Virus record (IMG/VR): IMGVR_UViG_3300021171_000010
Coordinates: 1 to 64,000 of that record
Length of the DNA: 64,000 nucleotides
Reading direction: 5' to 3' (one strand)
Source of the DNA: a virus
Shown here: piece by piece, positions 1,311 through 61,105 of the stretch
Position numbering within the stretch: the stretch's first letter is position 1
Layout: every line of letters begins with the position of its first letter
Position numbers and translations under genes: made by a program
Notes under the pieces: generated by a model
What the model was told of the DNA's origin: nothing
Database searches by the model: none
Seen by the model: the letters and a program-made list of their open reading frames with translations, nothing else

Positions 1311-1621
1311 GGGCGCGAATTTGGTTTCGATTTAATCGGAGCAAAGTTTAGCTGCACGCACAGGATGCCTCGTTGGCCTGTTTAAACATCCGAGACAAAA
1401 ATCAAACGATAATACTGAACCGTTAGGTGACAGTGTGAGTTTGTTCGATATGTGCGCCCGGCCGGCGCAGCCCGCATCACCAATGCAGGCACGCACGATT
1501 CCGGCGCACATGATTCTGGCCTGAGGCCAGTGGTGGAGGCAGGAGCAGTGTTGGTAAGCGTGTAAGTCAGTTTTTCTTTTTCGGATTAAAGACGCGAGTT
1601 CGAATCTCGCCGCGTCCACCA
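1311..1621 (+). ncRNA. ssrA: tmRNA (phage-encoded, reduced)
   Basis: 5' GGGCGCG pairs with 3' CGCGTCC-ACCA, giving a G3.U wobble (Ala identity). T-arm GCGAG-TTCGAAT-CTCGC. Helix 2: TTTAATC/GATTAAA and GCACGC/GCGTGT. pk1: ACAGG/CCTGT plus CTCG/CGAG. Tag frame begins TCA AAC GAT AAT and its stop lies in the loop of the CTGGCC-TGA-GGCCAG hairpin. Confidence 0.9.
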
Positions 1622-3529: not shown

Positions 3530-4003
3530 ATGAGAGAGATTGCTTTATCTCGTGGTTTGGTGGCTTTGGTGGATGACCACAACTTTGATTGGCTTAATCG
3601 GTGGAAATGGCACGCACACAAAGCTGATAAAATTTGGTATGCGAGGAGAAATGAAGGCCGAGGAGAAACACGAACTACCGTGTTGATGCACAGGGAAATT
3701 CTACAGCTACGCGGAGGGTCCCGAGGAGACCACAAAGATGGGAATGGGTTAAATAACTTAGAAGAAAATATACGTGCCGCAGATGCTATGACTAATGGGC
3801 AGAACCGGCGTCCCAACGCCGGGCGCTCTCTAAAAGGTGTAAGTTTTCATAAAGGAAGTTGGATAGCGCGCATTACTGTTGGCGGAGTTACAAAACATTT
3901 GGGGTGTTTTTCTTCTGAGGAGTCGGCGGCCCGAGCATATGATGCAGCCGCATTAATTTATTTCGGAACCTTCGCACGCTTAAATTTTCCCGGAGATGCC
4001 TGA
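3530..4003 (+). CDS. HNH-AP2 homing endonuclease (copy 1)
   Basis: ALVDD..FDWL..WKW, MHREIL, GDHKDGNGLNN..ENIR, AP2 domain KGVS...W.ARI...HLG.F...E.AARAYD.AA...FG.FARLNFP. Confidence 0.9.
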   Translation: MREIALSRGLVALVDDHNFDWLNRWKWHAHKADKIWYARRNEGRGETRTTVLMHREILQLRGGSRGDHKDGNGLNNLEENIRAADAMTNGQNRRPNAGRSLKGVSFHKGSWIARITVGGVTKHLGCFSSEESAARAYDAAALIYFGTFARLNFPGDA

Positions 4004-5930
4004 TATCTTCGACAGAGTAGCGGAGCTTGTCCATCGGCGGAAAATCATTGACGCTGCTGGAACGCTTGCAGAAGAGTTTAAGATAAAGCTTAAATTAAAT
4101 TCCGAAAAATCTGCAAATAATTTTTTGTTGGGGGCCGTTCACAATCTATTGAATACTGGAAGGCCGGATAGAGCTGCCCAGATTCTTTGGTCCCCTACAC
4201 AATTCACCGCCGAGCCGAGTTCAGTAAAAGCGGTGTGGAATCTATATGACACCGCGAACATGGGCCTCATCATGGGCGCGGCTAAGATGGGCAAAAGTTT
4301 TTCGATGGGGGTGCGCCTTTTCCTGGAATGGGTGCGTGACCCGGAATGGACATCAATACGTGTAATTGGACCAAGTGAAAACCACCTTGAAGAAAATCTG
4401 TTCTCTCACCTTGTCGCTCTTCATAGTCGTGCGGCCCTTGAAATGCCGGGCGAAGTCGGTTCGTTGTTCATCGGCCTTAATCGACGGGACCAGCTATCCT
4501 CGATTAGGGGACTGGTCATTCCCAAAGGGAACACGAAGAAGGCGGGGAGATTGCAAGGTGGACACCGTAGACCGCGCGCGGTTTCTCATCCAATCTTCGG
4601 CCCCCTATCTCGCCTTTTTATCTTCTTGGACGAAATCGAAAACGTGCCCAATGGTGTTTGGCTCGACATCGACAACGTTTTATCCGAAATAGAAAAAGAG
4701 GGCGGCCCGGGCTCAGGCTTCAAAATTTTCGGCGCTTATAATCCCACAAACTCTGGCGATGAAGTAGCCAAGCGAGCCGAGCCGCCTTTCGGGTGGTCAT
4801 CGGTAGATGAGGAAACGCATTTTCGGTGGAAGTCAATCCGCGGATGGGAGGTTCTTCGGCTAGATGCGGAGAAGACGGAAAATGTGCTGCAGGGCAAGAT
4901 GATATTCCCCGGGCTGCAAACCAGGGAAGGCCTTGAGACGATTGCGTTGAATGCCGGCGGCCGGAACGCTCCCGGATATCGCACCATGGGCCGCGGAATG
5001 TATCCGTCCATGGGCATGGAAGCCACTGTGGTGCCGCCGGGCATGCTGGATAAATGGCGCGGGACTTTCATTTGGTATGAAGACCCTCAGCCGGTAGGCA
5101 GCACAGATTTGGCTTTGGAAGGTGGAGCGAACTGCGTTCACACTCTGGGAAAATTCGGCCGAGCCACTGGTATAAAATGGCCGTCCTCATTACTATTCCC
5201 TAACGGGCATACGCAGATGTTTAAAGACCGAGCCGGGCAGGTGATGCCTCGTTGGGCACTACAAGCGAATTCCCAGTTCGTGTTTCCCAAAGGTGACACA
5301 GTGGTAATGAAGGAAGGGATTTTACTAATTAATCGACGTAGCGGCACTGTAGGAAAATATTATGCGTGTGACCGAACCGGACACGGCGCCGGCATCGCAG
5401 ACTTGCTTAAGTATGAATGGTCCGGGGAAATCCACGATGTCAACTATTCGGGCGGCAGTAGCGAAGAGAAGTTGATGGCAGAGGACACAAAGACTTGCAA
5501 AGAGCAATTTGAGCGAATGCAAACCGAACTTTGGTTTGCACTCCGCGCCTGGGGCGAGTTCGGTTATTTTCTTTTGGACCCTGCTATGGATTTGTCAAAG
5601 CTTACGCAGCAGCTAACGCAGAGACGTTTTCGCACCTCTGGCGGAAAATCTAAAGTGGAAAGCAAAAAAGATTATATGAGCCGCGGATTTGCTTCTCCTG
5701 ATGAAGCGGACTCACTTACTTTGCTCATTCACGCTGCCAGGAAAGGTAGCGGATTGATTCTTTCGATGCGCGGTGACCACCTTCCGGATGTTCCAGGTGC
5801 AGACCCCAATAGCCCGGGAGAGGATTGGCCGGGGCAATATGAAAATGGTGTGCATGTGGATGTGTCCAATAAAGCCGACTATTTAGATACAGCCGAAAGG
5901 CTGCCATTTGATTACGCCGGCATCCTATGA
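3996..5930 (+). CDS. terL: terminase large subunit
   Basis: Walker A-like GAAKMGKS, Walker B FIFLDEIE, coupling motif GAYNP, nuclease motifs TDLA.EGG, DRTGHGAG and SPDEADSL. Lies upstream of the portal. Confidence 0.85.
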   Translation: MPDIFDRVAELVHRRKIIDAAGTLAEEFKIKLKLNSEKSANNFLLGAVHNLLNTGRPDRAAQILWSPTQFTAEPSSVKAVWNLYDTANMGLIMGAAKMGKSFSMGVRLFLEWVRDPEWTSIRVIGPSENHLEENLFSHLVALHSRAALEMPGEVGSLFIGLNRRDQLSSIRGLVIPKGNTKKAGRLQGGHRRPRAVSHPIFGPLSRLFIFLDEIENVPNGVWLDIDNVLSEIEKEGGPGSGFKIFGAYNPTNSGDEVAKRAEPPFGWSSVDEETHFRWKSIRGWEVLRLDAEKTENVLQGKMIFPGLQTREGLETIALNAGGRNAPGYRTMGRGMYPSMGMEATVVPPGMLDKWRGTFIWYEDPQPVGSTDLALEGGANCVHTLGKFGRATGIKWPSSLLFPNGHTQMFKDRAGQVMPRWALQANSQFVFPKGDTVVMKEGILLINRRSGTVGKYYACDRTGHGAGIADLLKYEWSGEIHDVNYSGGSSEEKLMAEDTKTCKEQFERMQTELWFALRAWGEFGYFLLDPAMDLSKLTQQLTQRRFRTSGGKSKVESKKDYMSRGFASPDEADSLTLLIHAARKGSGLILSMRGDHLPDVPGADPNSPGEDWPGQYENGVHVDVSNKADYLDTAERLPFDYAGIL

Positions 5931-11771: not shown

Positions 11772-12502
11772 GTCCCAAAATCCTAATATGCTTGGAGTTT
11801 TGGGAGGGCGACAAAGCCCAATCGATGCAGCTCGCGCGATTCATCGCCGACCTTCAGCCCGGGCGCTGTGATTCTGCCGATTTTCTTTTCGTGTCACGTT
11901 TTGACTGTTCGCAGGATGCGGAAACAATTAAATATGTTGCTCGAAAGTTCAACGTGCACCACTACCGCAGTCCGAAGTCTGGCACGGGTTGGCCTCATGG
12001 TTGCAATGAATTGTGGTTCGGTGCCATGGAGTGGATTTATCACATGATAGAGGCTAAGAAAGTGCCTCAATATAAGGCCATTTTTACAATCGAGGGAGAC
12101 GGGCTTCCTCTGCAGTCAAACTGGATTGTGGACTTCTCTCGTAAGTGGGATGAACTAAATGCTATAAAGCCTGTTTATGTAGCAGGCGCTATATTGAATC
12201 CCGGCGAAGACGGGGAGCACGTGAACGGCCAAGCGTTCTTCTCTGGTGACCTTCGATTTTTATTTTGGATTGTTAAACGAATTAACGGAGCTCCTTCGAA
12301 TTGCGGCTGGGATTATTGGTTGCGGAAGGATTTTGCCCGATGGGGGCAGGCGCAGATGCCCGGGCTTCGTTGCTACTGGGGCACTAAGACTTTCTCACAG
12401 GAGCAGTATGAGCAGGAGCAACGAGATGGCACCGTGTGGCTGCACGGAGTTAAAGACAATTCACTATACTCAATGAGCCGAAAGAAACTCTTGAACGTAT
12501 GA
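11768..12502 (+). CDS. putative GT-A fold glycosyltransferase
   Basis: IFTIEGDGLPL (ExD), H.NG, GWDY, C-terminal LHGVKD. Start at ATG 11768 (ATGA overlap). Confidence 0.6.
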   Translation: MSPKILICLEFWEGDKAQSMQLARFIADLQPGRCDSADFLFVSRFDCSQDAETIKYVARKFNVHHYRSPKSGTGWPHGCNELWFGAMEWIYHMIEAKKVPQYKAIFTIEGDGLPLQSNWIVDFSRKWDELNAIKPVYVAGAILNPGEDGEHVNGQAFFSGDLRFLFWIVKRINGAPSNCGWDYWLRKDFARWGQAQMPGLRCYWGTKTFSQEQYEQEQRDGTVWLHGVKDNSLYSMSRKKLLNV

Positions 12503-13434
12503 TGGACCGAAATCGAAAAGTTTACGTGGCCGGACATCGTGGTCTCGCGGGCCGCGCAATTCTTCGGGAGCTAAATACCTTAGGATTTGAAAACGTGTTG
12601 ACGATTCCGCACAATTTATTGGACCTACGAAATCAGAAGGAAGTTTTTTCGATGTTCAAGCATGAGCGCCCCGATTACGTTTTTCTGTGTGCAGCTAAGG
12701 TGGGTGGAATTGTGGCGCATCTCAATTCGCCTGTTGATTTTTTGGTGGACAATCTGGCCATCCAAACGAACGTTATGCAGGCGGCTAAGCAATGCGGCGT
12801 GGAAAAGCTTTTATTCTTGGGGTCTGCGTGCGCGTATCCGAAGTTTGCGCCTAATCCAATCAAGGAAGAGTATCTACTTACCGGCGAACTTGAGCCTTCA
12901 AACCGGGGGTATGCTCTGGCGAAGATTGCGGGCATTGAAGCGTGCAAGGCATATCGAAGGCAATACAATTGTGATTTTATCGCGTGTATGCCAACTAACT
13001 TCTATGGGCCGGGCGACAACTATCATGCAGAAAATTCGCACGTTATTCCTGGCATGATACGCAAACTGCACGAAGCCAAAAAAGCAGGCGTCTGCAAAGC
13101 TGTATTGTGGGGGACCGGATTCCCGGTTCGTGAATTTATCTATTCCGACGACTTGGCCCGCGCGTGTATTTTTCTCATGAATAATTACAGCAGCGGGGAG
13201 CTTATAAATTTAGGTTCCGGGGAGAATGTGACCTTGCGCGAATTGGCGCGTCTGGTAGCGGCCGCGGTGAATTACCAGGGCGATGTTATCTGGGATACGG
13301 AGAAACCGGACGGAACCCCCGAGCGAAGGCTAGATAATTCCAAGCTTTTTGAAATGGGCTGGCTGCCGACTGTTGGACTGGGCTATGGTTTGCTAGAAGC
13401 CTACAAAGATTTTTTATGCCGAGAGCACTTATAA
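12499..13434 (+). CDS. fcl: GDP-L-fucose synthase (epimerase/reductase)
   Basis: [35 protein letters not shown] (YxxxK), PTNFYGP.DN, SHVIPG, WGTG.P.REF, KPDGTP. Confidence 0.95.
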
Positions 13435-14366
13435 CTGGAATAACCGGGCAGGATGGTAGCCATCTTGCTGAATTGCTGTTGTCAAAAGGCTATGAGGTGC
13501 ATGGCATCATGCGCCGGGCTAGCACCTTCAACACGGCGCGTATCGACCACATATGGGATAAACTGTATATTCACCATGGTGACCTAACGGATTCGGGCAA
13601 TCTCTCGCGCATCGTTCACACAGTGGCGCCGGATGAGGTTTACAACTTGGGTGCGCAGTCGCACGTGAAGGTGTCCTTTGATGTTCCGGAATATTCTATG
13701 GAAGCGACCGGCGGCGGCTCGCTTCGATTGCTGGAAGCGGTGAAGGAATTCGCTCCTGGCGCTCGGTTTTATCAAGCGAGCTCGTCCGAGATGTTCGGCT
13801 CTTCGCCCCCGCCTCAGAATGAGTCCACCCCGTTTCATCCACGCAGCCCTTACGGATGCGCAAAGGTTTTCGCCTACTGGACCGCGGTAAATTATCGAGA
13901 AGCTTACAAAATGCATGTGAGCAACGGGATTTTATTCAACCACGAGGGACCGCGCCGCGGAGAGACTTTTGTTACGCGAAAAATTACCCGGGCTGTGGCT
14001 CGAATAAGGAAGGGGCTGCAGAAAGAGCTGGTGCTTGGTAATCTTAATGCTCTTCGTGATTGGGGGTATGCCGGCGACTTTGTGGAGGCTATGTGGTTAA
14101 TGGTGCAGAAATCTTGGGCTGATGATTACGTTATTGCTACGGGCGAGATGCATACGGTGAAGGAATTTATTGAGCTCGCTTTCGATTATGTGGGCCTTCC
14201 CTGGGAGCCTTACGTGAAGACGGACCCTAAATATTTTCGTCCCTCTGAGGTGGATGCGCTGCAGGGCGATGCGACGAAAGCGTTTAAACAGCTCGGGTGG
14301 AAACCTAAAACTTCGTTTGCTGACCTTGTGGCGATGATGGTTGAGAACGACCTAAAGATAGTATGA
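13416..14366 (+). CDS. gmd: GDP-mannose 4,6-dehydratase
   Basis: [71 protein letters not shown]. Confidence 0.97.
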
Positions 14367-34804: not shown

Positions 34805-37800
34805 GTGCCTACGTTTACCGCACCTGACGGTTCGCCTGTTACTTTGACCCCAGAGCAGCAGACTCAAGCGCTTAGCCTTGCATCTGCTGCTACTCCCGAA
34901 GCTACTTTCACTCGGCCTGACGGCACTCCCGTCACATTGGCACCTGAGCAGCAATCTCAGGCGTTGCAACAGGCCCAATCTCCCGCGCCGATGCTTAGCC
35001 GGCCGGATGGCACGCCCCTGGACGTCACAAGTCTTCATGCTGAACAACTGGCCGAGTTGAATAAGCAAGAGCCGGGTTTCGACCTCCCGTCCGTGTGGAA
35101 TTCCCTGCCCGCGGAACAAAAAACACCTGACGCGCTAGCGAGATTTTCTGAAGCTTCGCACCTCGTGCATCAGCAGCCTTTTTCGTTGCCTACGGTGACC
35201 AAGATGCTTTCCAATCTCTGGCAGCTTGCCAAAGGGGGCGGCGAGATGATTTCCAACCTTGCCAAGGGTGGCGCTTTGATAGTTGGTGGATATCCCGGCG
35301 CAGGCACCTGGATGGACCCCCAGAAGGTTAAGGAAGTTCAGCAGGGAATCGCCGAAGGATGGTCTGGAACAGAGAGCGCGGTGACTGGACTCGCCAATCA
35401 ACTCAAGGAAACAGTGGTGCGGCACGTCATTCAGCCGCCTAACACACTGGACCCGGCGGTTAAGCAGCAGAATTTTCTTGATGAGGCTGCGATGGCAGAC
35501 CAGCAGTCTCAAATTCTAAAAGGTCGCGGCGAGTTCATGAATCGAGTTGGTGGCGATGAAATATCTTATTTGGAGTCACAGGGATTTCCGGTTCGCCCAG
35601 AGCATGCTGCTAATCTTGCTCAAGTGGACCCATTCACTTTTTATCTTTTTGGCAAAGCCTTTGACGCATTGCCGGCGGCTACTAAAGCGGCTATTCCCAC
35701 GCCGATTTTAGACGCAATTCAAAAAGCCAGCGATACCGCGACCGATACCGCCAAACAAATCGTGGGCGGAGGAGCTGCTGCGACTGCTGCAGTGCTGCAA
35801 GGTGTAGGCGCGGGCGTGACTAAAGCGGCTCCGCATATTGGGCGCCCCGCGGCTGCGATTGCCGGCGGAATTCATGCCGGCGTGCCGGGCGCGGTCACGG
35901 GACTGGTTTTCGGCAAAGGCATGACCGAATCCCTGTCTGAGATGGGGAAGAAAATTGCTTCGGCAGCTAAAGGCACCGCTAAATTCGGTGAAGGCGTGTC
36001 CAGCGAGGCGGCTACCGGACCGGTATCACAGGCTGCCAAGGACATTATTGAAGCTGCGCCCGGCGCATTAGCTGGTGTCGCTCAAGGCGCCGCTTTAGAT
36101 GTGGGACTTCAGGCGGCCACAGCAGAGACGCCGCAGCAACAGCAAAGCTTCACCCCGGTGGGGACCGCCATGGGATTGACTCATGGTGCTATGTCTGCTG
36201 GCAAGTGGATGCTCGGCGGCCAACTTGCAGGAGAGCGGAACTGGGGCGCTACCGCAGGTGTGCCAAATTCGGCAGCGTTTCCCGCGCTGAACACTCTCCA
36301 CAACGCCGCAATGTCTGCTGCGCCCCCTAAGATTCAGGAAAGAATCAGGGCGATTCAGCAGCTTAAGCAGGGAGTCAATCCTAACACTGATGTTTTCTAC
36401 ATCCCCGACCCGGTGGGTGTGATGGCTGCTCTGGGTGCAACTCCGGGTGCGGAACAGCATGCTTTTCAGGCCGGCGCCGCGAATGGAGTTTTCTTGAAGG
36501 ATTTGCCCGGAGCGAATGGGCAGAAGCGCAACGCAATCATCTTCCAGAACGTAGATGCGGCCCCACACGAAGCAGTGCACGCGATGGATGCAGCTCTCGG
36601 AGCGGAAAGAGTAAATGAGCTTAATCAGTCTGCTAAATCAGACTATGGAGACCTTTGGGACCAATTTACCAGTCATTACGCCAATTTGCTCAATGGAGGA
36701 CAGCCACTTCCTGAAGGCACTACGCCAGGAGATTTTCTGCTTCAGCAATCAGGATTTGGCCCTGAGGCAGCCCGGAATAAAACCGGCGGAGACGGGTCAG
36801 ATTGGCAGACTGCTCTGACACCAGACGAAAAGCAAAACGCGATTGACCGCTACATCGGCGCCGAGATTCGCGCGGAGAACGGGGACGCGTATTTCAAACG
36901 CACGGGCGGCAAAGCGCCGGGATTCACAGACAAAATGGCGAATGCTGCCGGCGAGCTCGTAAGCCTGCTAGGTGGAAATCCCTTAGAGGGACGCGTTAGC
37001 AGCGGACTTCAACTACCGTTGCGATGGGACACGTTTAAACAGGCTGGTCAAACTCTTGCCGAGGCCCGGGCTAATGTTCCTCCTGCTTTGCGGCCTGTAG
37101 CTAGAACGCCACTAACTACTAAGACGGTGCCGACCACGCCGGAGGAAATCCAGCAGAATGCGGATGACGCAAGAGTAATTGCTGGACAGCAGCCGGCAGA
37201 GAAACCGACTGGCGCCGAGGGCGAGCAGTCGCCCAAAGAAGCCCTGGGAACAGTTGCTGAAGCGATTGCAAGCCAGTCCCCAGTGCGATATCAATACCGC
37301 GGGGCCGCCGGCGAAACTCCTACAGGGGGAGCCTTGGAAACTGATGTTTCGCAGCGCCAAGCCGAAATAGCCAAAGCTCAAAACGTGTCTGAGACCGACC
37401 GAGATCTTTTCGAGCGCGTCGGATTCCCATACAAAGTAGAAATGACCGGCAAAGGTCCTCAAGTTCTAGACTGGGCGCCCGTAAATCTCGCCGCAAATGC
37501 TTTTCGTTGGTCCAAAGCTCTGTCAGAACTAGCCAAGAAAAATCCAAATGCTCCGGAGCTTGCACGCAATCCATTTGCATTAGATGTCGCGAAAGGCGAG
37601 TTCACAACTGAAGGCTGGCATGATTTGTTAGACACTGCACAGAAAGTATCTGCAAATCAACTTGCCGGATTTGGCGGGGCTGGACAGAAAATCGTTGTGC
37701 CGTCCGATTTAGGGGCTGCGAACGTCTATGCACCGCCTCGTGTTTCTGAAACTGCTCCTTTTCAAGTTGACCAAGCGAAAGCAGATTTTATTAACATGCT

Positions 37801-40800
37801 TTATGGGGAACGTCCGCCAGAGACACCGCGTGTGTCTCGCAAAAGCGGCGTCCCCGCCAATGTTGTGGCGCAGAAAATCTCTGCCGCTACTGAGCCCGGA
37901 AGGGTAGTTGAGCCAGCGAAGATTCGAGCAAAGCCCAAGCAGGCCGCCGGGCTTGGCGTGGAACCTGGGACGTTAATAGAGCGCGCGCCATTCAAAGAGC
38001 CAATTTTGGGTGTGCCTACCATCCAGGAAGTAAATCCCACCCGAGGTGCTTTAGAAAATGCCCTGCAGTCCGCCGGTGTTGAAATCCCCAAGATGACAAA
38101 AGTCATCCGCCGGTTGAACCTGGAACATATCCATTCAGTTCAACCGGAACCAAATCTGCCGCGGACCGCGGGCGCCAATGTTCTAACCACCACTGCCGGC
38201 TTTATGCCGGTGACGGATTTTGTTGACCGGCTTGATAAAACCTCGCCGGATGATTGGCGAAACATGGTGACCAATTATCAGGGCCGATTTGGGGGTGGAC
38301 AGACCGGTTTGTCAATAGAGGTTGGGGCTGGGGCAAAAAGTCCTGAGGAAGTGGCAGCTTTGCAATCTGCTACGGAGCGCCAAAGTGAACTAATGCGCGG
38401 GGCTTTAAAGAACAGAGATTTTCAAACTGCCGCGGGATATGCGATTAAGGCGCAGGCAGCTAGAGAGGCTCATGAGGCCGCTACTGGTGGCGGAGGGATG
38501 CCAGATTTTCTGCAAAGGTATCACCCCGAGGCTGGATATAAACCTCCGTTTCCTGAATCGACTTTACAAGCTGCGCCGCGGAATGAAGATGTGGCCAAAG
38601 TGGCAGAGGATTATGTGGGCCGACCGCTGCGTCCCATCGGCAATTTGCCAATCAGCCCCGACTTAGGCAAGCGCCTCGCGGACTTCGCACAGGAAGCGCA
38701 GCACAATCCGGATGACCCTGCTGTGAAGGCTAGTTATGGTGCGTTGAACGCGCAGATTAAACAGCAGTATGACGCAATCCGGAAAGCGGGCTACACTGTA
38801 GAGCCGTGGACCGGCGCAGGCGAGCCTTACAAGTCCAGTGCCGAGATGTCTGCAGACGTGCGCGACAACAAGCACCTTTTCTTCACGCCAACTGCGCGCA
38901 GTTTTAGTGGCCAAGAAAACAACTTGATGCTACAACCCTCTGGCGTGGGTGATTTAAGTCATAATGATTTATTCCGCGCGGTGCATGATTTCTTCGGCCA
39001 CGCCAAGGAGGGGTTGCAGTTTGGTCCCCGGGGTGAATATAATGCTTGGCGGGAACATTCCCAGATGTTCAGCCCGGAAGCTCAGGGCGCCTTAGCTGCC
39101 GAGACTTTGGCTCAAAACGCTTTCGTAAATTTCGGTAGTCATCTCCGCAACGCGGAAGGAAACATACCGGCAGTGGGAGAGCCCGGGTATGTTCCGCCTG
39201 CTCAGCGACCTTTCGCGGAACAAAAAAATTTCGTGGTGCCCTCCGAACTCAGGAAAGCCGCACAATTTCAACCACTTCCTCCCGGTGCTGGCAAAGCTCT
39301 TGATTGGCGTGACTTAGGGAACGATACTCTTGCTCCCGGCCTTCACATCGAAGCTATCGCTGGAAAGCCTCCTGCTGTTCCGATTTCTCAGCTCCAAAAA
39401 GAGGGCTGGAAAACGATGGACTTTCAAGATAATGGAAGCTTCCATGATTACGACAATCGCCCCGTTTTTTACAAAGATAATACGGGAAAATTTCCCGTAA
39501 CTCCTGATGGAGTAAAGGCGGCTTCTGAGGCCGCTAGTAAAGCTTTTGATGAAGCTCAAAATTTAGCGTTCGAAGACCGATATGGCGAAGGCCCCGTTCA
39601 ATATCAGCCTAGACCAATCGAAGAGGCGCGTAGCGAGCCGAAAACGATTCTAATTCGCCACGGAACGACTGCCCTGAATAACACTGACCCGACCAAAGAT
39701 TTAATCCGCGGGCACAAAAACGTTCAGCTTAGTGAAGAGGGCCGACAGCAAGCCGCGGAGCTGGGGCAGCAGCTTAAAACCTCTGGTATCTCCAGAATTT
39801 ATTCCTCTGATTTAGACCGCACCATGGACACTGCCAAGGAAGTGGCCAAAACCACCGGTGCGCCTATAACGCCCGATGCTAGACTAAGGCCCTGGAAACT
39901 TGGAAGCACAATCGAAGGAAAACCGACAGCGGATATGCTGCCTAGAATCAAATCTCTTACTGAGAGTCCAGATGAACGACCGCCCGGCGGAGAGACCTTC
40001 AATGAATTCAAGGACCGTTTTCTTGAAGGCTATCACGCAATCCAGGACGCGCATCCGAATGAGCACACCGCTATAGTGACTCACTATCGCGGCACGAAGT
40101 TGATGGATGCTTGGCGTGCCGCCGGCGTGGATAATGACGAGGTGAAACCAGATGTTTTCGATGCATATGACCCGCACAAAAAACCGGGCAGTTATCAGGT
40201 GCTCGACAAGCAAGGTAATGAGCTACCTCTAGATACCGCTCGCCCGGAGGGAGCTCCAATCACTCACCTCTCTGATGCTGAGTTGAACTCGGCGCCGGGC
40301 ATGACGCGCGAGCAGACTCTGGCAGCCGAGCGAGGGGGAACCCAGCCAGCACAGTTCAAGCCTCGTGAGAAACAGGAAAAAGAAATCGAGCTGCGCCACT
40401 GGTCAAACATTCCGGGACTCAAAGTGCTTGACCCTCGTTTTCATGGCACCGGCTTGAGTGGTGAGGAACGCGCCCGAGCCCGTGACTACAAAGAAATTTA
40501 CGTGCCTCGCACCTATTTTGGAACGAAGGATTACACCAAAGAGCCGAACCTGGGGCCAGAGCAATACCGCGCTTTTGTGCAGCGCAGCAAGCTCTACCCG
40601 TTTCAGGAAGACCCCAAAGATTTGTGGCCCACGCCGGAGGAAGTGGAAAAGGCCGGATACGCGCCGATGGACTCTCGCGCGGCGAATACGCTTTACGAAA
40701 ATAAGATTGCGCAGGCTGGTTATGAGGGCTATATTCACCGTGATGCAAAAGTCGCTGCGAAGTTCACCAAGACTCCGGTAGAATATTTAGGCTCTATGGC

Positions 40801-42715
40801 CCAATTCTCACCATCTACCAAACCTCGTGCTATCCGAGCAGCCGCAGTGCAAGACAAAGACACTGGCCAAATTTTCGAAGGTTTTGCACATTTTGATGCT
40901 CACGGAAAAATGCTGGATGCTGGTTATAATCCTCACGACTTGTTTCAGCACCCGCAGGGTTTTGTGACAAATGAAGGTGAATTTTTGGACCGAGAACAGG
41001 CTTTAAAAAGGGCGAGAGAATTGGACCAAATACGTCCTTCCTACGCCGAAAATAAAACGCGAACGCGTGCTATTGCTGAGGCTATAGATATGGCCGCCAA
41101 ACCCCCATCCTCAGCAGAGCCGGCCGGGCCGGCGCAATTCAAACCCGCGGGCGCTCCCAAACTGGAAGATTTCCAATCTGAAGACAAAATAGCTAAAGCG
41201 CTCGCGCGCCCGGGATGGGCATTACTCACCGCGACCGAAGAGCGAAAAGGTCCCGGCACTGCTCCGGTAAATGTGAAAGCAAACGAACGCTTATCAGACA
41301 GACTCGCTCAGCTCGGTTATGATTTCACTCCTGTAGCTGGCAGCTATAAAGGCATCGACCAAGGCCAGAATTTTCTCGTGACTGGCATTTCTCCACAGGA
41401 TGCTCTCACGCTGGGGAAGGAATTCAATCAAGAATCCGTTCTTACTCCCGCCGGACTGGTGTATCAAGACGGAAGTGTGCACCCCGCCAAGCCGGAAGAG
41501 ACTACCATAGGCAAAGCGGCCAAGAAAAACGATTTCTATTCCCAAGTCCAGGGCGGCCCGGCATTTTCGATGGGTATCGATTTCGAGAACAAGATTCCCG
41601 CTTCTGAAGCTCCAGTCCCCGCGGCTCGGCCAGAGCAGCAGATGATGGGCGGAGAGTTTTCGCCCACCAAAGAGCTGGCCGGCAATCAAATGTCGCCCAC
41701 GGAGCTGAAGGAACATTACCCGGAAGCGATTGTAGTGCCTGATAAGGAAAACGGCAAGCCTGTAGGCATCCCTTCGGATATCAAAGAATCTCCACTCTAC
41801 AAAGAGCATGAGACTGAAGCTGAGGCAGTGGACACTTTCGCTAAACGACTCGCAGACTTTGCTCGCCAATACAAAGACAACCCAGCTTACAAAGATGGGC
41901 TGCGTTGGTATTCTGAATTCGTCCCGCTTTTGAAAAAGCATTTTGGCGAGCATGCCCAAATAATGGCTGAGCTCCTGGCGGCCACAAGCCCGCAGAACAA
42001 TCCACAGCAAAATTTTGCGATGGCGAATGATGCGCTGGAAATGTGGAAGCGCGGCAAGTTCGATAAACAGCTCGCTAAATTCGAAGAAGGTGCAAAAAAG
42101 ATTGAAGATGGGACTTGGAAAGATTCCGGGGCGCCGACCGAAGCAAAATTCATGGCTGACTGGATTGATGAGCACGATTTAAAACCGCGGCAGAGCAATG
42201 GAAAGCTTTATAACATGCACTCTGTGCCAGTGCTTCAGGTGCTCGCCCGCAAGTGGCTAGAAAACACCGGCGGCCCGAAGACTCAAAACTTCGTCAAGAA
42301 TCTCTTGGGCACCGGGCATGGCGCCACTTATGATGTGTGGGCTGACCGTACCCTTCGCAGAATCGGATATTCAGGGCATCAAGCGCGATGGCGAATCCTG
42401 CCAAAGAACGCGGTGGGGGTCTCAGATGCTGATTTTGCTTTCGGCCAGAAAGTTTTCGCCAAGGCAGCCAAGGAGCTCGGCGTGAGGCCGGATTCTCTGC
42501 AGGGCGGTCTGTGGTTCGCAGAAAAACAATTGTGGGCGGACAACGGGTGGGGTAGACTTGACTTAGGCGATTTTCGGAAAGAAATCCAGAATCGCGAGTT
42601 GCTGAACCGCGGCATTGTGCAGCGCTTGGCAGCTACGGAAGCGGCGCAGCAAGCTCCTCAGACTGCGCAGAGCGGATTTGATTTGGGAATGATTGAACCG
42701 AGACCGATTCGATGA
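34805..42715 (+). CDS. giant modular ejection / polyvalent protein (HExxH peptidase, histidine phosphatase, ART-like, DUF3293-like and HhH-like domains)
   Basis: 2636 aa. APHEAVH at about 36560; VHDFFGH..GE domain; LIRHG...SSDL.R...PPGGE...VTH phosphatase; RHWS..L..LDP.F.GTG ART-like segment; WALLTA...FNQESVL; C-terminal WY...AATSPQ...GPKT..F..NL...DVW...LQGGLW domain. Confidence 0.8.
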   Translation: MPTFTAPDGSPVTLTPEQQTQALSLASAATPEATFTRPDGTPVTLAPEQQSQALQQAQSPAPMLSRPDGTPLDVTSLHAEQLAELNKQEPGFDLPSVWNSLPAEQKTPDALARFSEASHLVHQQPFSLPTVTKMLSNLWQLAKGGGEMISNLAKGGALIVGGYPGAGTWMDPQKVKEVQQGIAEGWSGTESAVTGLANQLKETVVRHVIQPPNTLDPAVKQQNFLDEAAMADQQSQILKGRGEFMNRVGGDEISYLESQGFPVRPEHAANLAQVDPFTFYLFGKAFDALPAATKAAIPTPILDAIQKASDTATDTAKQIVGGGAAATAAVLQGVGAGVTKAAPHIGRPAAAIAGGIHAGVPGAVTGLVFGKGMTESLSEMGKKIASAAKGTAKFGEGVSSEAATGPVSQAAKDIIEAAPGALAGVAQGAALDVGLQAATAETPQQQQSFTPVGTAMGLTHGAMSAGKWMLGGQLAGERNWGATAGVPNSAAFPALNTLHNAAMSAAPPKIQERIRAIQQLKQGVNPNTDVFYIPDPVGVMAALGATPGAEQHAFQAGAANGVFLKDLPGANGQKRNAIIFQNVDAAPHEAVHAMDAALGAERVNELNQSAKSDYGDLWDQFTSHYANLLNGGQPLPEGTTPGDFLLQQSGFGPEAARNKTGGDGSDWQTALTPDEKQNAIDRYIGAEIRAENGDAYFKRTGGKAPGFTDKMANAAGELVSLLGGNPLEGRVSSGLQLPLRWDTFKQAGQTLAEARANVPPALRPVARTPLTTKTVPTTPEEIQQNADDARVIAGQQPAEKPTGAEGEQSPKEALGTVAEAIASQSPVRYQYRGAAGETPTGGALETDVSQRQAEIAKAQNVSETDRDLFERVGFPYKVEMTGKGPQVLDWAPVNLAANAFRWSKALSELAKKNPNAPELARNPFALDVAKGEFTTEGWHDLLDTAQKVSANQLAGFGGAGQKIVVPSDLGAANVYAPPRVSETAPFQVDQAKADFINMLYGERPPETPRVSRKSGVPANVVAQKISAATEPGRVVEPAKIRAKPKQAAGLGVEPGTLIERAPFKEPILGVPTIQEVNPTRGALENALQSAGVEIPKMTKVIRRLNLEHIHSVQPEPNLPRTAGANVLTTTAGFMPVTDFVDRLDKTSPDDWRNMVTNYQGRFGGGQTGLSIEVGAGAKSPEEVAALQSATERQSELMRGALKNRDFQTAAGYAIKAQAAREAHEAATGGGGMPDFLQRYHPEAGYKPPFPESTLQAAPRNEDVAKVAEDYVGRPLRPIGNLPISPDLGKRLADFAQEAQHNPDDPAVKASYGALNAQIKQQYDAIRKAGYTVEPWTGAGEPYKSSAEMSADVRDNKHLFFTPTARSFSGQENNLMLQPSGVGDLSHNDLFRAVHDFFGHAKEGLQFGPRGEYNAWREHSQMFSPEAQGALAAETLAQNAFVNFGSHLRNAEGNIPAVGEPGYVPPAQRPFAEQKNFVVPSELRKAAQFQPLPPGAGKALDWRDLGNDTLAPGLHIEAIAGKPPAVPISQLQKEGWKTMDFQDNGSFHDYDNRPVFYKDNTGKFPVTPDGVKAASEAASKAFDEAQNLAFEDRYGEGPVQYQPRPIEEARSEPKTILIRHGTTALNNTDPTKDLIRGHKNVQLSEEGRQQAAELGQQLKTSGISRIYSSDLDRTMDTAKEVAKTTGAPITPDARLRPWKLGSTIEGKPTADMLPRIKSLTESPDERPPGGETFNEFKDRFLEGYHAIQDAHPNEHTAIVTHYRGTKLMDAWRAAGVDNDEVKPDVFDAYDPHKKPGSYQVLDKQGNELPLDTARPEGAPITHLSDAELNSAPGMTREQTLAAERGGTQPAQFKPREKQEKEIELRHWSNIPGLKVLDPRFHGTGLSGEERARARDYKEIYVPRTYFGTKDYTKEPNLGPEQYRAFVQRSKLYPFQEDPKDLWPTPEEVEKAGYAPMDSRAANTLYENKIAQAGYEGYIHRDAKVAAKFTKTPVEYLGSMAQFSPSTKPRAIRAAAVQDKDTGQIFEGFAHFDAHGKMLDAGYNPHDLFQHPQGFVTNEGEFLDREQALKRARELDQIRPSYAENKTRTRAIAEAIDMAAKPPSSAEPAGPAQFKPAGAPKLEDFQSEDKIAKALARPGWALLTATEERKGPGTAPVNVKANERLSDRLAQLGYDFTPVAGSYKGIDQGQNFLVTGISPQDALTLGKEFNQESVLTPAGLVYQDGSVHPAKPEETTIGKAAKKNDFYSQVQGGPAFSMGIDFENKIPASEAPVPAARPEQQMMGGEFSPTKELAGNQMSPTELKEHYPEAIVVPDKENGKPVGIPSDIKESPLYKEHETEAEAVDTFAKRLADFARQYKDNPAYKDGLRWYSEFVPLLKKHFGEHAQIMAELLAATSPQNNPQQNFAMANDALEMWKRGKFDKQLAKFEEGAKKIEDGTWKDSGAPTEAKFMADWIDEHDLKPRQSNGKLYNMHSVPVLQVLARKWLENTGGPKTQNFVKNLLGTGHGATYDVWADRTLRRIGYSGHQARWRILPKNAVGVSDADFAFGQKVFAKAAKELGVRPDSLQGGLWFAEKQLWADNGWGRLDLGDFRKEIQNRELLNRGIVQRLAATEAAQQAPQTAQSGFDLGMIEPRPIR

Positions 42716-43581: not shown

Positions 43582-43917
43582 ATTCTCACTGCTGAGAAAT
43601 GTGCCTTCGGCGGTCATGCCCAACTTTTGGGCGATGGCAGAAAACTCCGGTCCATGTCCTGGCACCGGGCAAGCCGCATGACAGAGCTCGTGCAATAAAA
43701 ATTGAAGCATCTGGCGCCGGCCGGGGAATTTCTTACTAATGACGACCACGTTCACCGCACGGTGAAACTCCCCAAAATAGTGAACATGCTGGCAGTCTCC
43801 CAGGAACACGCGCAGCCGAGTAGGTAGCGGGTGCCCGATTCGAATGAACTCGCCGCGCATTAGCTTTACTGCGCGGCGTAGCCATTTTTCCTTGAGCGCT
43901 CGTCTAGTGAGAGGCAT
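43477..43917 (-). CDS. SprT-like zinc metalloprotease
   Basis: LLHELCHAA...GHGPEF...LGM. Confidence 0.7.
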   Translation of the reverse strand: MPLTRRALKEKWLRRAVKLMRGEFIRIGHPLPTRLRVFLGDCQHVHYFGEFHRAVNVVVISKKFPGRRQMLQFLLHELCHAACPVPGHGPEFSAIAQKLGMTAEGTFLSSENLDDWLHDCVQQSAGTRRSPRSRGARLKVRHSRIS

Positions 43918-44386
43918 CTGGAAAATTTAAAGCCGCGAAATCACCAAAAAGTTTTTGTGCCGCGGCATCGTAAGCCTTGGCGGCCTCTACTTCATCATCG
44001 AAGTATCCTAAGTGTTTCTGGCAAGCATCAAGGACAATATATGCTCGCCAGCACTGGTCCCTTCGATACCAGCTCACGCCTTTGAAGCGACTGGTTCGTT
44101 TGCCTTGACGCGGTAAAATTTGATAACGCACGTTTTGAGCATTAGTGCAGACTCGTAAATTATCAAACCAGTTGTGCAGGCCATTGCCATCCCAGTGATT
44201 CACTTTTGCGGAATCCGGCGCGTTTACTAGCCATCTATGTAAGTAAACGAGCGAACCAGCGATGCGCGCTCTGGCATAAATAGTTTTCTCTCTTCGGTCC
44301 GCATGCCACTTATGAAGATTAACACTAGCAAACACCGAATCATCCACCAAGGCAACTAATCCCTGAGAAAGGGGAACGACTTTCAC
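43904..44386 (-). CDS. HNH-AP2 homing endonuclease (copy 2)
   Basis: ALVDD, YLHR, VNHWDGNGLHN..DNLR, SRFKGVSW...EAAKAYD.AA..LFGDFAALNFP. Confidence 0.9.
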   Translation of the reverse strand: MKVVPLSQGLVALVDDSVFASVNLHKWHADRREKTIYARARIAGSLVYLHRWLVNAPDSAKVNHWDGNGLHNWFDNLRVCTNAQNVRYQILPRQGKRTSRFKGVSWYRRDQCWRAYIVLDACQKHLGYFDDEVEAAKAYDAAAQKLFGDFAALNFPDASH

Positions 44387-45654: not shown

Positions 45655-46246
45655 TTTTAGTTTCAACACCGTTTTTTTCCAACCATTCGTGAGTAAAGGG
45701 AGTCTGCCGGCCGGCAAAGGCTTCGTCAAAAGCGAACAGACATTGCTCAACTGTAGGGCCGATGCCCACCAAGCAGGTAGGCGAATTCAAATCCCCTTTG
45801 AAAGCGGCCCAGTCGCCTGTTTTCAACCGCACCAGGGTAGGATTCAACCGAGTATGGGGCGAGGAAATTTCTAGAGAGGCTTTTTTCTGCGCTTCCAGAC
45901 TTTCCAGGTTCAGCTTGATGGCTGCCTTGTAGTCGGCCTCGACCTGCTTTTGAAATTCGCTGTCCCACCGCGCGCTGTCATCCAAAATCGCATCCAGGCG
46001 TTCACACACCTTGATAAAAGTGTTCTCTGCAGCGACAAGGGCTTCCCCAGGCAACGCCTTTTCGGCGGAGGGCACGGAAGACTCATTGTATTCCATGTTC
46101 TGTGCCTTCACGTTACAGGCGGTAATCATCATGCCGATGATTTGCAAACAGGTGTTCACCTGCTGCTGAGTCGCCAACTCCCGCATCGAAAGCTGAATTT
46201 GTGGAGGATTCACGATTTGATTCTGCCTAAATGATTGATTGCCCAT
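45500..46246 (-). CDS. hypothetical protein
   Basis: 248-aa ORF; its C-terminal tail overlaps the next gene. Confidence 0.65.
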   Translation of the reverse strand: MGNQSFRQNQIVNPPQIQLSMRELATQQQVNTCLQIIGMMITACNVKAQNMEYNESSVPSAEKALPGEALVAAENTFIKVCERLDAILDDSARWDSEFQKQVEADYKAAIKLNLESLEAQKKASLEISSPHTRLNPTLVRLKTGDWAAFKGDLNSPTCLVGIGPTVEQCLFAFDEAFAGRQTPFTHEWLEKNGVETKNEQAPLDKNRNANPDATPLPGKDRKRNRRSPRPPSLPSDGEDSSSSPTGGA

Positions 46247-46718
46247 ACTTTAAAAAGTTTGTCCTCGCAAATTCTCCAAAAAATTTCCGAGCCGCAGCAT
46301 CATATGCCTTAGCAGCCTTTTCTGCCGTGTCGAATCTTCCAAGGTATTTGAGCCGATTGTTTACTCGAATACTAGCTTGCCACATCCCATTATGCCAGCT
46401 AACGCCCTTGAAACCGGAGGTATTGTTTCGGCTCATACCCTTGTTTTGCTGATTTTGGTGCCGAGTAACACGAAGATTATAGCGCTGATAATTTAGAGAA
46501 TTTCCATCAGCATGGTCTCCTTGTGTTTTAGGATTATCAAGTCCCAAAATTAAACGATGCATCAGGATAAGCTTACGCATGCCTTTGCATCTAATACTGC
46601 GCGCGGCATAATATCCGCTATTCACTTCCATTGCATACCAATTCCATTGGCTGAGCCATTCAAAATCAGCATCATCAACTAAAGCAAATTGACCCTTTGT
46701 CAAGGGAATCTGTTTCAT
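46227..46718 (-). CDS. HNH-AP2 homing endonuclease (copy 3)
   Basis: MKQIPLTKGQFALVDDADFEWL, MHRLILG, GDHADGN, NTSGFKGVSW, AAKAYD.AA...FGEFARTNF. Confidence 0.9.
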   Translation of the reverse strand: MKQIPLTKGQFALVDDADFEWLSQWNWYAMEVNSGYYAARSIRCKGMRKLILMHRLILGLDNPKTQGDHADGNSLNYQRYNLRVTRHQNQQNKGMSRNNTSGFKGVSWHNGMWQASIRVNNRLKYLGRFDTAEKAAKAYDAAARKFFGEFARTNFLKYGQSII

Positions 46719-50099: not shown

Positions 50100-50582
50100 T
50101 CAGGGGAAATTAAGCACCGCGAAGGCACCAAAATATTTACGAGCAGCGGTATCATAGCATTCGGCAGCTAATCGTAAATCTCTAAAATATCCCAAGTGCT
50201 TCTTTTTACCGTTCACCTGTATTTGCACCACCCAACTTTTATTGCTAATTTTCCACGAGACGCCCTTACGCCCAGAAGCATTATCGATACGCAAGCGCTG
50301 ATTTTGATTGTTGTTCGTCCTAGTGGCTACTCTTAAATTATGTTCCCTATTGTTAAGGCCATCGCCATCCCAATGGTCCCCCTCAATTTTGGGATTTTTA
50401 ATGCCTAAAATCAGGCGGTGCATTCTTATTTGAAGCTGCTTGCCGTTCGGCCCCGGAACATTCCGCACTGCATAGAAAGTTTTTCCGTGCTTCTGGGTCC
50501 ACCACTTCCATTGATTGAGCCAAGAATAGTTCCAATCATCTACAATAGTAGATTTACCTTGCGTAAGCGAAATGCGTTTCAT
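50100..50582 (-). CDS. HNH-AP2 homing endonuclease (copy 4)
   Basis: LTQGK..IVDD, MHRLILG, GDHWDGDGLNN..HNLR, NASGRKGVSW, FGAFAVLNFP. Confidence 0.9.
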   Translation of the reverse strand: MKRISLTQGKSTIVDDWNYSWLNQWKWWTQKHGKTFYAVRNVPGPNGKQLQIRMHRLILGIKNPKIEGDHWDGDGLNNREHNLRVATRTNNNQNQRLRIDNASGRKGVSWKISNKSWVVQIQVNGKKKHLGYFRDLRLAAECYDTAARKYFGAFAVLNFP

Positions 50583-56846: not shown

Positions 56847-57041
56847 TTAGTATTTGGACATCACGCGAGACTTGATGTCCTGAGCGGGTTTTCCAGTAGG
56901 ACGCCAATTACTGTGCTCGACTGCGTTTAGCAATCGTTTCTGGCGAGCCGCCTTTGCAGGCGTTGTGGATTTTGCTTTGATACCTCCCGGAGTCCGCACC
57001 TGGACCCGGCCTTTTCCAACAGATTTTATACGCACTGGCAT
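56847..57041 (-). CDS. small basic protein
   Basis: MPVRIK...VRTPGG.KAK.TT..KA..Q.RLLNAVEH..WRPT. Confidence 0.65.
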   Translation of the reverse strand: MPVRIKSVGKGRVQVRTPGGIKAKSTTPAKAARQKRLLNAVEHSNWRPTGKPAQDIKSRVMSKY

Positions 57042-57532
57042 GTTTTAATGGTGGGAAAATTGAGCCGCGCAAACGAGCCAAAATATCTTGCAGCCAAAGC
57101 ATCATAAGCTTTAGCTGCCTCGATTTCATCAGTAAACAATCCTCCATAAATGTGAAGATAAAAATACCGAAGTTGCACAACCCATCGTTGTTTATCTGTC
57201 TTCCACGATACTCCACGAAAACGACTCGTTTTCCCAATTTTCAACTGGCGGAACGCAGAAGAATTTTGCTGATTAGAACAGGCCCTCAAATTCGAGCGAA
57301 GGCAATTTAAGCCATCTCCGTCTTTATGGTCTGTTTTTATTTTCCGGTCGGTAAGTCCCAAAATTACGCGATGTAAATAGCACTTTGTAAAGGAGCCGTC
57401 AGGTTTGACGGCGTGTCCGACCGCATAGGTGCGGCGTCCATATTTACGCGCCCACCAAGATTGCTGAGATACACGAACAAAGTCTTTTCGACTAACTCGT
57501 GCGAATCCTCCACTTGTAAGTAGTAATTTCAC
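57026..57532 (-). CDS. HNH-AP2 homing endonuclease (copy 5)
   Basis: GTG start at 57532; YLHRVILG, TDHKDGDGLN..RSNLR, SRFRGVSW, EAAKAYD...FGSFARLNFP. Confidence 0.88.
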   Translation of the reverse strand: MKLLLTSGGFARVSRKDFVRVSQQSWWARKYGRRTYAVGHAVKPDGSFTKCYLHRVILGLTDRKIKTDHKDGDGLNCLRSNLRACSNQQNSSAFRQLKIGKTSRFRGVSWKTDKQRWVVQLRYFYLHIYGGLFTDEIEAAKAYDALAARYFGSFARLNFPTIKTCQCV

Positions 57533-57781
57533 GCTGCAATTCGCAAACCTAATTCTGCGCCGCGGTCTACAAGAGACCGAAGCTGTTGGTTGAGCGGCGC
57601 GCAAGACTGCCGCAGCGATTTAATGCTGGCTGCCTTTTTAACGGCGCCCAGTTCCTCGTCATTCTCGATACGCATTATCTGCACATCGACCGATGCTAAC
57701 TCTGCTTGAATCTGCTTGACTCGCTTCGGAATTCTCCGAGCTCGATTAGCCAGCAGGTGTTTTTTGGTATTGTGTTGTCAT
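57529..57781 (-). pseudogene. small coiled-coil gene with a +1 frameshift near its start
   Basis: ATG 57781 in good context stops after 11 codons. The +1 frame gives TKKHLLANRARRIPKRVKQIQAELASV...GLRIAA*, ending in a GTGA overlap with the HNH start. Confidence 0.5.
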
Positions 57782-60441: not shown

Positions 60442-60917
60442 GGAAAATTGAGACGTGCGAATTCTCCAAAATATTTACGCGCCGCAACATCATAAGCCCG
60501 GGCCGCTTCTTCTGCCGTTTTGAACCGCCCTAAAACAATTGATTTATAGTTTACACAAATCATCCCCACCCAAGGGGTCTGGGGGCGTCCTTTACAAGCA
60601 GAAACTCCTTTATATCCCGATTTATTATTTCGACGAAGGCCTTGATTTGCGTGATTTTGTGAATTAGTTGCGGGACGAAGATTGTGTCGCTGATTATCTA
60701 AGCCGTTAAGATTTTTATGCTTCCCCTGAATTTTAGAATCCGTAAGTCCTAAAATTTGTCGATGCATTAGATAATTTTTGCCTTTCCATCCTTCCTTACG
60801 CATCGCATACCAAGAGCCTCGAAAACAAACCGCTTGCCATCTCCATTGATTTAGCCAATCAAAATCAGCATCATCAACAAACGCAACTTTGCCCCGAGTT
60901 AGAATAATCTGTTTCAA
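60432..60917 (-). CDS. HNH-AP2 homing endonuclease (copy 6)
   Basis: LTRGKVAFVDDADFDWL, MHRQILG, GKHKNLNGLDN.R.NLR, NKSGYKGV, EEAARAYD.AA...FGEFARLNFP. Confidence 0.9.
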   Translation of the reverse strand: MKQIILTRGKVAFVDDADFDWLNQWRWQAVCFRGSWYAMRKEGWKGKNYLMHRQILGLTDSKIQGKHKNLNGLDNQRHNLRPATNSQNHANQGLRRNNKSGYKGVSACKGRPQTPWVGMICVNYKSIVLGRFKTAEEAARAYDVAARKYFGEFARLNFPCP

Positions 60918-61105
60918 TTTCCTAAAGCTTCACAACACCACGCGGCGTGGCGGTCTCCTTCAGGAACACCGCAGTGAGGACAAGCAGCGATAGCCAGTCC
61001 ACACTTGATGCATTCCCACCCCACAACAACGACCCCGCCAGTATCTTTACACTCTTCAGTGACTTCCTGAAGTTTGTGCGTTCCGCATTTTGGACACGTG
61101 TTCAC
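60914..61105 (-). CDS. small zinc-ribbon protein
   Basis: CPKCG, CIKCG, CPHCG, H...C. Confidence 0.65.
   Translation of the reverse strand: MNTCPKCGTHKLQEVTEECKDTGGVVVVGWECIKCGLAIAACPHCGVPEGDRHAAWCCEALGN

Follow-up and report, generated by a model that had tools for sequence, protein, structure and literature searches.

A phage-borne one-piece tmRNA gene with a long predicted tag frame in place of pseudoknots 2–4

The stretch of DNA analysed here (the window, 64,000 nt) is the first 64 kb of the 73,551-bp IMG/VR virus record IMGVR_UViG_3300021171_000010, which is rated 100% complete. A tmRNA gene lies near its beginning, and genes for tail fibres, DNA polymerase, a helicase and a sigma factor are found farther along. 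The genes surrounding the tmRNA are arranged as follows.

249–977: serine-recombinase-like gene (Resolvase domain, E 1e-24), 330 nt upstream of the tmRNA
1311–1621, + strand: tmRNA gene, one-piece, in the standard order, 311 nt (Infernal, RF00023)
1626–1961, + strand: HNH endonuclease gene (phrog_2255, E 1.4e-14), starting 5 nt after the tmRNA 3′ end
2818–2889, + strand: tRNA-Met gene (CAT; ARAGORN), within the same extra segment of ~2.1 kb as the tmRNA
3530–4003: HNH endonuclease gene (phrog_99)
3996–5930: gene for a protein of 644 aa, taken as the large terminase by position, with no family match

The region upstream of the tmRNA encodes a complete Resolvase domain, whereas the Recombinase domain is cut off after its first half by the stop at 977; the frame that follows this stop (983–1105) is also conserved in relatives, and the whole region 249–1105 could be a split or frameshifted gene.

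Searches with the terminase-like protein revealed 22 related IMG/VR loci, at 54–68% identity. Rfam scans covered 18 of them, and the whole records behind five loci (two among the four unscanned) were searched with RF00023. L006 was the only locus with a tmRNA (338 nt, 77.3 bits), and its record is complete and has no smpB; the five whole records of other relatives contained no tmRNA (0/5). A segment of about 2.1 kb that the relatives lack lies in the window between the recombinase-like gene and the gene preceding the terminase; it comprises the tmRNA, the HNH gene, two small ORFs and the tRNA-Met. The HNH gene at 1626–1961 is missing in all four whole relatives compared. The tmRNA of L006 adjoins two tRNAs and precedes the recombinase homologue by about 2.7 kb. 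Since relatives do not have the extra segment and the L006 copy is at a different position, the tmRNA is an accessory, movable gene of this phage group, and the ~2.1-kb segment is possibly a mobile cassette. Neither a blastn search with positions 1200–1700 nor a tblastn search with the terminase found a match among the INPHARED phages. When the 98 ORFs were compared with four whole relatives, the genes confined to both tmRNA-bearing phages included no candidate for a protease or an adaptor; besides the frame antisense to the tmRNA, the sole exclusive ORF encodes 63 aa (60914–61105), and a 455-aa exonuclease is 73% identical to that of G006, with marginal matches elsewhere.

The Infernal search with RF00023 matched positions 1311–1621 (+) over 311 nt, end to end with the model (1–374), at 75.4 bits, well above the gathering score of 47 (E 1.8e-27); these are exactly the coordinates at which the initial annotation, made from the letters of the sequence, had placed a phage tmRNA and for which it had suggested such a check. 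No other RNA family exceeded the Infernal threshold in the window. ARAGORN, suggested for the same purpose, went against the proposal and called no tmRNA in the window, in L006 or in the whole records, its only call in the window being the tRNA-Met at 2818–2889. Such genes are likely under-counted, because ARAGORN, with which Pharokka, a standard phage annotation pipeline, calls tmRNA, overlooks this form. A profile search for SmpB (PF01668) found none anywhere in the whole 73,551-bp record, so the earlier remark that the window has no smpB is borne out over the full genome. The molecule is in standard order rather than permuted into two pieces, with the 5′ acceptor strand at 1311 and CCA at 1619–1621; and its length of 311 nt, its pk1 and its conserved frame of 38 codons set it apart from RNAs of the DS6A type, which have no message part and measure ~65–120 nt. 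The features distinguished within and around the gene are listed below.

1290–1310, + strand: leader just 5′ of the mature end (direct reading); a part of it, TTGTTCTTTG..ATTT, is common to L006
1311–1317, + strand: 5′ strand of the acceptor stem, GGGCGCG, pairing with 1611–1617, with G3·U70; ACCA at 1618–1621
1331–1359, + strand: helix 2, 5′ strand, pairing with 1558–1590 (cofold and comparison with L006)
1332–1673, − strand: antisense open frame of 113 aa, open in the window and L006, probably not a gene
1360–1397, + strand: pk1 (Infernal alignment and comparison with L006)
1408–1410, + strand: likely resume codon, GAU (Asp), with an A at −4; its aligned counterparts are GCA in the consensus and GCU in L006
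1408–1524, + strand: tag frame of 38 codons, DNTEPLGDSVSLFDMCARPAQPASPMQARTIPAHMILA, and UGA at 1522–1524 (translation; the other two frames close early)
1441–1464, + strand: conserved core LFDMCARP (codons 12–19), an identical peptide in L006
1450–1511, + strand: long irregular hairpin within the frame, at the base of which AUGUGCGCC (1450–1458) pairs with GGCGCACAU (1503–1511)
1516–1530, + strand: helix-5-like hairpin CUGGCC-UGA-GGCCAG with the stop in its 3-nt loop (reading and cofold)
1531–1557, + strand: remnant of the pk2–pk4 arc, 27 nt, beginning with the conserved UGGUGGAGG (1531–1539)
1558–1590, + strand: helix 2, 3′ (returning) strand (cofold and comparison with L006)
1594–1610, + strand: T arm GCGAG-UUCGAAU-CUCGC, 5/5 pairs, identical in L006

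The tRNA-like domain, helix 2 and pk1, which had been described as intact, are all present according to the Infernal alignment, the cofolds and the comparison of pairs. The acceptor stem has seven of seven pairs in both the window and L006, with the encoded ACCA and a G·U at position 3 (G3·U70 is the alanine identity pair), and the cofold energies of helix 2 are −21.6 and −21.0 kcal/mol. In pk1, stem 1 is formed by ACAGG (1360–1364) with CCUGU (1377–1381; 5 bp) and stem 2 by UGCCUCG (1366–1372) with CGAGACA (1391–1397; 7 bp, one of them a C·A mismatch in the window that is U·G in L006); the pseudoknot ends 10 nt ahead of GAU 1408, and the spacer is A-rich. Among the 29 pairs of the acceptor stem, T arm and helix 2, four differ in both bases between the window and L006 and still pair, namely the acceptor pair 6:302 (C–G in the window, U–A in L006) and the helix-2 pairs 24:277, 25:276 and 47:250. 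As these paired changes, one in the acceptor stem and three in helix 2, and the C·A to U·G change of pk1 all retain pairing, there is good evidence that the RNA fold is under selection, as far as two sequences can tell. In the leader (1290–1310), no + strand site of the sigma-70 type was called.

The initial annotation had read a tag of 40 codons from position 1402. Its frame and its stop hold, and its resume point does not: judging from the alignments by which the position is inferred, GAU 1408 is more likely to be the resume codon than 1402, because it aligns with the consensus GCA in the Infernal alignment and with GCU of L006, with an A at −4 in both phages, and it gives 38 encoded residues ending in ILA. 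Counting the alanine together with the encoded residues, the tag would comprise about 39 residues in the window and 52 in L006. In the other two frames, the stop comes after 5 and 0 codons (window) or 4 and 0 codons (L006); these short frames are unalike and have no hydrophobic or Ala ending. No frame but the long one is plausible as a tag frame. The open length alone is unremarkable, as dinucleotide-shuffled arcs stay open as long from the resume site in 4961 of 20,000 cases for the window and in 1951 of 20,000 for L006. A search of a large protein collection with the tag frame gave no candidate, Pfam found nothing in the tag frames of the window and L006, and the ESM Atlas recognition value, 1246, is under the useful range. 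Searches of the genome and all loci by tblastn with the two tags returned only weak matches, which were put down to chance because they lie inside larger ORFs of another frame or strand.

The stop codon TGA (1522–1524) lies between CTGGCC (1516–1521) and GGCCAG (1525–1530), which form a 6-bp hairpin. The stop in a hairpin loop, as first noticed, is correct for the window; the sequence of the hairpin is not conserved, L006 having a different one, with UGA in its 3′ strand, and one partial relative another short one, with UAA in its loop. The distance from the stop region to helix 2, estimated earlier at about 25 nt, is 27 nt in the window (1531–1557, the 3′ strand starting at 1558) and 24 nt in L006, which leaves no room for pk2–pk4; the model positions of pk2–pk4 are either deleted or aligned at a posterior of 0.2–0.4 by Infernal, and the fold of 1525–1557, including the 3′ strand of the hairpin, is no better than that of shuffles (z −0.14). 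The absence of pk2–pk4 is thus supported, and so, from the extent of the frame and the missing pseudoknots, is the earlier idea that coding sequence has taken the place of the pseudoknot arc, with translated-type sequence filling the arc where pk2–pk4 normally sit. The frame region itself folds with z-scores of −1.90 (window) and −2.25 (L006), 6 of 200 shuffles being as good in each case. L006 also has a long hairpin there, but its letters and register differ from those of the window; part of the core codons lies in the base of the window hairpin, and the RNA structure may thus impose some constraint as well.

The element UGGUGGAGG stands directly after the tag stop in the window (1531–1539) and in L006 (L006:1093–1101), and its start is seen in the relative from run X6. 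The letters UGGUGGA after the stop are fully complementary to UCCACCA, the 3′ end of the RNA itself, the GGAGG in this post-stop element resembles a Shine–Dalgarno sequence, and one cofold pairs GGAGGC with the pk1 strand GCCUC.

In L006, the tag frame runs for 51 codons from GCU to UGA, directly ahead of the common post-stop element, and is longer than that of the window by 9 nt upstream of the core and by 30 nt downstream. The two peptides have only the LFDMCARP core, two further residue pairs and the final Ala in common; in the core, TGC is replaced by TGT and GCC by GCT, and the peptide is unchanged. A comparison of the gene with the contigs of four public runs added three partial relatives, and the comparison set consists of two full-length tmRNA sequences and three fragments. 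Record 2 of run X2 (soil metatranscriptome) keeps GAT, has a net gain of 6 nt before the core and shows GCC>GCT, CGG>CGA and CCG>CCT at the core end, with Ala-Arg-Pro retained. Record 10 of run X6 (soil DNA) has 3 nt more before the core, a silent CCC>CCA and a TCA>TTA change (Ser>Leu); its frame ends with Ile-Phe-Ala-UAA, the UAA being in the loop of a different, 4-bp hairpin. Record 5 of run X4 (watershed run) keeps pk1 and GAT. All four in-frame length differences are multiples of three (+9, +30, +6 and +3 nt), the core is altered at third codon positions only in both variants that differ there, and the three variants that extend to the end of the tag have ILA, IFA and SMA there. The initial annotation was to be given up if close homologues had lost the long frame; it is open in L006 and in the partial relatives. 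The predicted tail appears to consist of a variable acidic start, the conserved LFDMCARP core and a variable Ala/Pro/Arg-rich end that closes with a hydrophobic residue and Ala.

Pattern scans of IMG/VR (T arm, pk1, the LFDMCARP codons and the post-stop element) found only the contig of L006 or nothing, and a scan with the alignment of the two tags matched 41 stretches, none of which was confirmed. The pk1 19-mer had two metagenome and four genome matches, which were attributed to chance because none of the six proved to be a tmRNA.

The soil metatranscriptome X2 contains a 244-nt contig that is identical to 1322–1565 and lies wholly inside the gene, and it contains the contig of a relative, too; the sample and study codes of X2 differ from those of the run marked as a possible source of the DNA. 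The RNA is present in an RNA library, where DNA carry-over is possible, and the contigs show neither ends nor strand. No X2 contig covers the flanks at 1150–1310 and 1622–1800, but missing coverage of this kind does not count as evidence. The phage-borne tmRNA gene is real and probably expressed.

A comparison with the one-piece SsrA of the E. coli type indicates the same general organisation, including G3·U70 with CCA, the T arm, the long helix 2, pk1 just upstream of a frame that has no start codon and a stop at a hairpin. Unlike the standard SsrA, the tmRNA of the window has no pk2–pk4, is carried by a phage with no smpB and has GAU as its probable resume codon, UGA as the stop and a predicted tag ending in ILA rather than LAA. 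A database of 97,179 tmRNA sequences gives 10 aa as the most frequent tag length and 2 as the shortest (PMC11915505), and a review of 2021 quotes a range of 8–35 aa (PMC8012679), which is exceeded by the 38 codons of the window and the 51 of L006. UGA is listed as a rare tag stop in an older alignment, with 10 sequences against 157 with a single UAA (PMC1168896). The tag of Mycoplasma, with 27 residues, is described as having probably evolved for Lon recognition (PMC8403727); the Mycoplasma SsrA resembles the tmRNA of the window in its unusually long tag but is a bacterial housekeeping gene, and its tag sequence is unrelated.

Phage tmRNAs have been recorded in 402 of 18,146 phage genomes (PMC9004378), and the Bxz1-type mycobacteriophages and phage G are reported to carry them (PMC4131195). 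With RF00023, Bxz1 (AY129337) scored 73.9 bits and Bacillus phage G (JN638751) 67.6 bits, and ARAGORN calls both tmRNAs, with tags of 25 and 13 residues, respectively. Like these, the tmRNA of the window is one-piece and phage-carried among tRNA genes; unlike these, it and the L006 tmRNA are not called by ARAGORN and have frames of 38 and 51 codons. In the literature searched, no description of phage tmRNAs with long tags or few pseudoknots was found. As for the pseudoknots, tagging in E. coli is described as not seriously impaired when pk2–pk4 are replaced or interchanged, and two-piece tmRNAs that have few pseudoknots as tagging well (PMC3968760), so the loss of pk2–pk4 need not hurt. The two-piece tmRNAs of alpha-proteobacteria and cyanobacteria resemble the molecule of the window in having few pseudoknots, but they are permuted, whereas its order is standard; the E. 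coli replacements are laboratory constructs, while in the window the arc is filled by translated-type sequence. The tRNA-like-domain-only RNA of mycobacteriophage DS6A is likewise a phage-borne tmRNA derivative that relies on host SmpB (for the window, this reliance is inferred), but DS6A is described as having no message part (PMC4131195), whereas the tmRNA of the window keeps pk1, the resume context and the long frame.

From the sequence comparisons, we consider it quite probable that the gene specifies a working phage tmRNA, one-piece and without pk2–pk4, that tags in the long frame. The host AlaRS would charge the RNA through G3·U70, and host SmpB and EF-Tu would bring it to the stalled ribosome, delivery falling to the SmpB of the host because the phage has no smpB. 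Translation would resume at GAU 1408, continue for 38 codons and stop at UGA 1522, and the rescued chain would gain Ala and 38 residues. The likeliest purpose would be ribosome rescue in infection, combined with a tag recognised outside the short-tag pathway that the host normally uses; the preferred candidate for its reader is another protease or adaptor, by analogy with the Lon-directed tag of Mycoplasma. The initial annotation had surmised that the tag may redirect rescued proteins or alter their stability; a specific recognition function for the LFDMCARP core and the hydrophobic-Ala ends is plausible. A more tentative suggestion, which we hold to be rather doubtful, is that the tail is a functional peptide module, in which LFDMCARP would be a docking site for a particular factor of the host or the phage, or a nascent-chain element acting in the ribosome tunnel, and through which the phage would set the fate of every chain rescued in infection; if this were true, the pseudoknot ring, regarded as a structural hallmark of one-piece tmRNAs, would have been replaced wholesale by translated sequence.

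The main rival to a switch of protease or adaptor is a pure decoy role, in which the RNA would bind host SmpB, AlaRS or ribosomes and damp trans-translation, while the content of the frame would be immaterial or poorly translated. The phage, having no smpB, must use the pool of the host, pk2–pk4 are missing and a DS6A-like molecule is reported to inhibit tmRNA in E. coli (PMC4131195, PMC11915505), all of which agrees with a competitor; but the RNA retains pk1, the resume context and a complete message part, with covariation, and the frame, LFDMCARP and the hydrophobic-Ala ends, unnecessary for a pure decoy, are kept across diverged relatives, and we regard this role as unlikely. It seems still less probable that translation resumes one or two bases away and yields a short tag of 0–5 residues, with the remaining ~120 nt serving as structure that replaces the pseudoknots. 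The somewhat better folding of the region than of its shuffles (z −1.90 and −2.25) and the non-significant length of the open frame taken alone are compatible with this, but the short frames (5 and 0 codons; 4 and 0 in L006) are unalike and have no hydrophobic or Ala endings, the hairpins of the window and L006 differ in letters and register, the substitutions of the conserved block follow a period of three and are not compensatory pairs, and the resume codon in the Infernal alignment falls in the long frame.

The codon-like conservation could also come from a real minus-strand gene (1332–1673, 113 aa) overlapping the tmRNA. In both phages, this frame has no stop over almost the entire tmRNA (the L006 counterpart is L006:912–1181 (−)), and because its wobble positions coincide with those of the tag frame, it is compatible with the same substitutions and indels; since it is equally open, third-position changes and multiple-of-three indels alone cannot assign the strand under selection. 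The period-three pattern in the compared sequences shows a constraint of the coding type, the strand of which is not fixed by the pattern alone. The antisense product, however, had four candidates in the protein clusters, none at E<=1, and no Pfam family; the parts past the tmRNA 3′ end are unalike between the phages; the first start codon is TTG 1673 in the window and, in L006, an ATG formed with the base that follows CCA; the C-terminal end is displaced by a 1-nt indel in the pk1 loop; and the supposed gene would overlap the start of the HNH gene and stand alone on the minus strand in the first ~43 kb, where the other genes are on the plus strand. For these reasons, and because the sense frame starts and stops exactly where a tmRNA tag should, the antisense frame is probably incidental, though it is more than the tag frame alone explains, and a real gene there is very improbable. 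Least credible of all is that a host ssrA was caught at a prophage edge. Indeed, ssrA is named as a common integration site (PMC11915505), and the serine recombinase gene is 330 nt upstream; but the record is 100% complete, the neighbouring genes are phage genes, the tmRNA being inside a run of them between the recombinase-like gene and the HNH–terminase module, which argues for a phage gene, a homologue occurs in a second related phage at another position, and the six pk1 19-mer matches in bacterial genomes and metagenomes are not tmRNAs.

Returning to the preferred reading of a working tmRNA that tags in the long frame, phage tmRNAs are known, yet there is almost nothing on what they do. The present example would imply that a natural one-piece tmRNA can manage without pk2–pk4, and that the space thus freed in the arc can hold a tag four to five times as long as usual. 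The LFDMCARP core is kept at the peptide level between phages whose common proteins are mostly about 30–70% identical. If a specific factor recognises the tail, the tmRNA would give the phage a means of diverting the products of stalled ribosomes; the comparisons suggest that the phage may give rescued proteins a fate of its own choosing.

Several further features of these genomes deserve mention. Just upstream of the L006 tmRNA, at L006:198–273 and adjoining a tRNA-Met, ARAGORN calls a tRNA with a four-base anticodon (gtat), to which it assigns no identity. The window contains five paralogous HNH-type ORFs (3530–4003, 43904–44386, 46227–46718, 50100–50582 and 60432–60917), all of which match one common place in G006 and one in G001; the ORF at 57026–57604 is less clear, as its match is near that place in G001 but at a different place in G006. 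The scattered HNH-type ORFs point to a probable heavy colonisation by homing endonucleases. A single ORF of 2636 aa occupies 34805–42715, to which the relatives match only in part, at 42–55% over 535–871 residues, and two adjacent genes for nucleotide-sugar epimerases (12499–14366; phrog_540, E 2.6e-74 and 7.8e-89) are located in the structural block.
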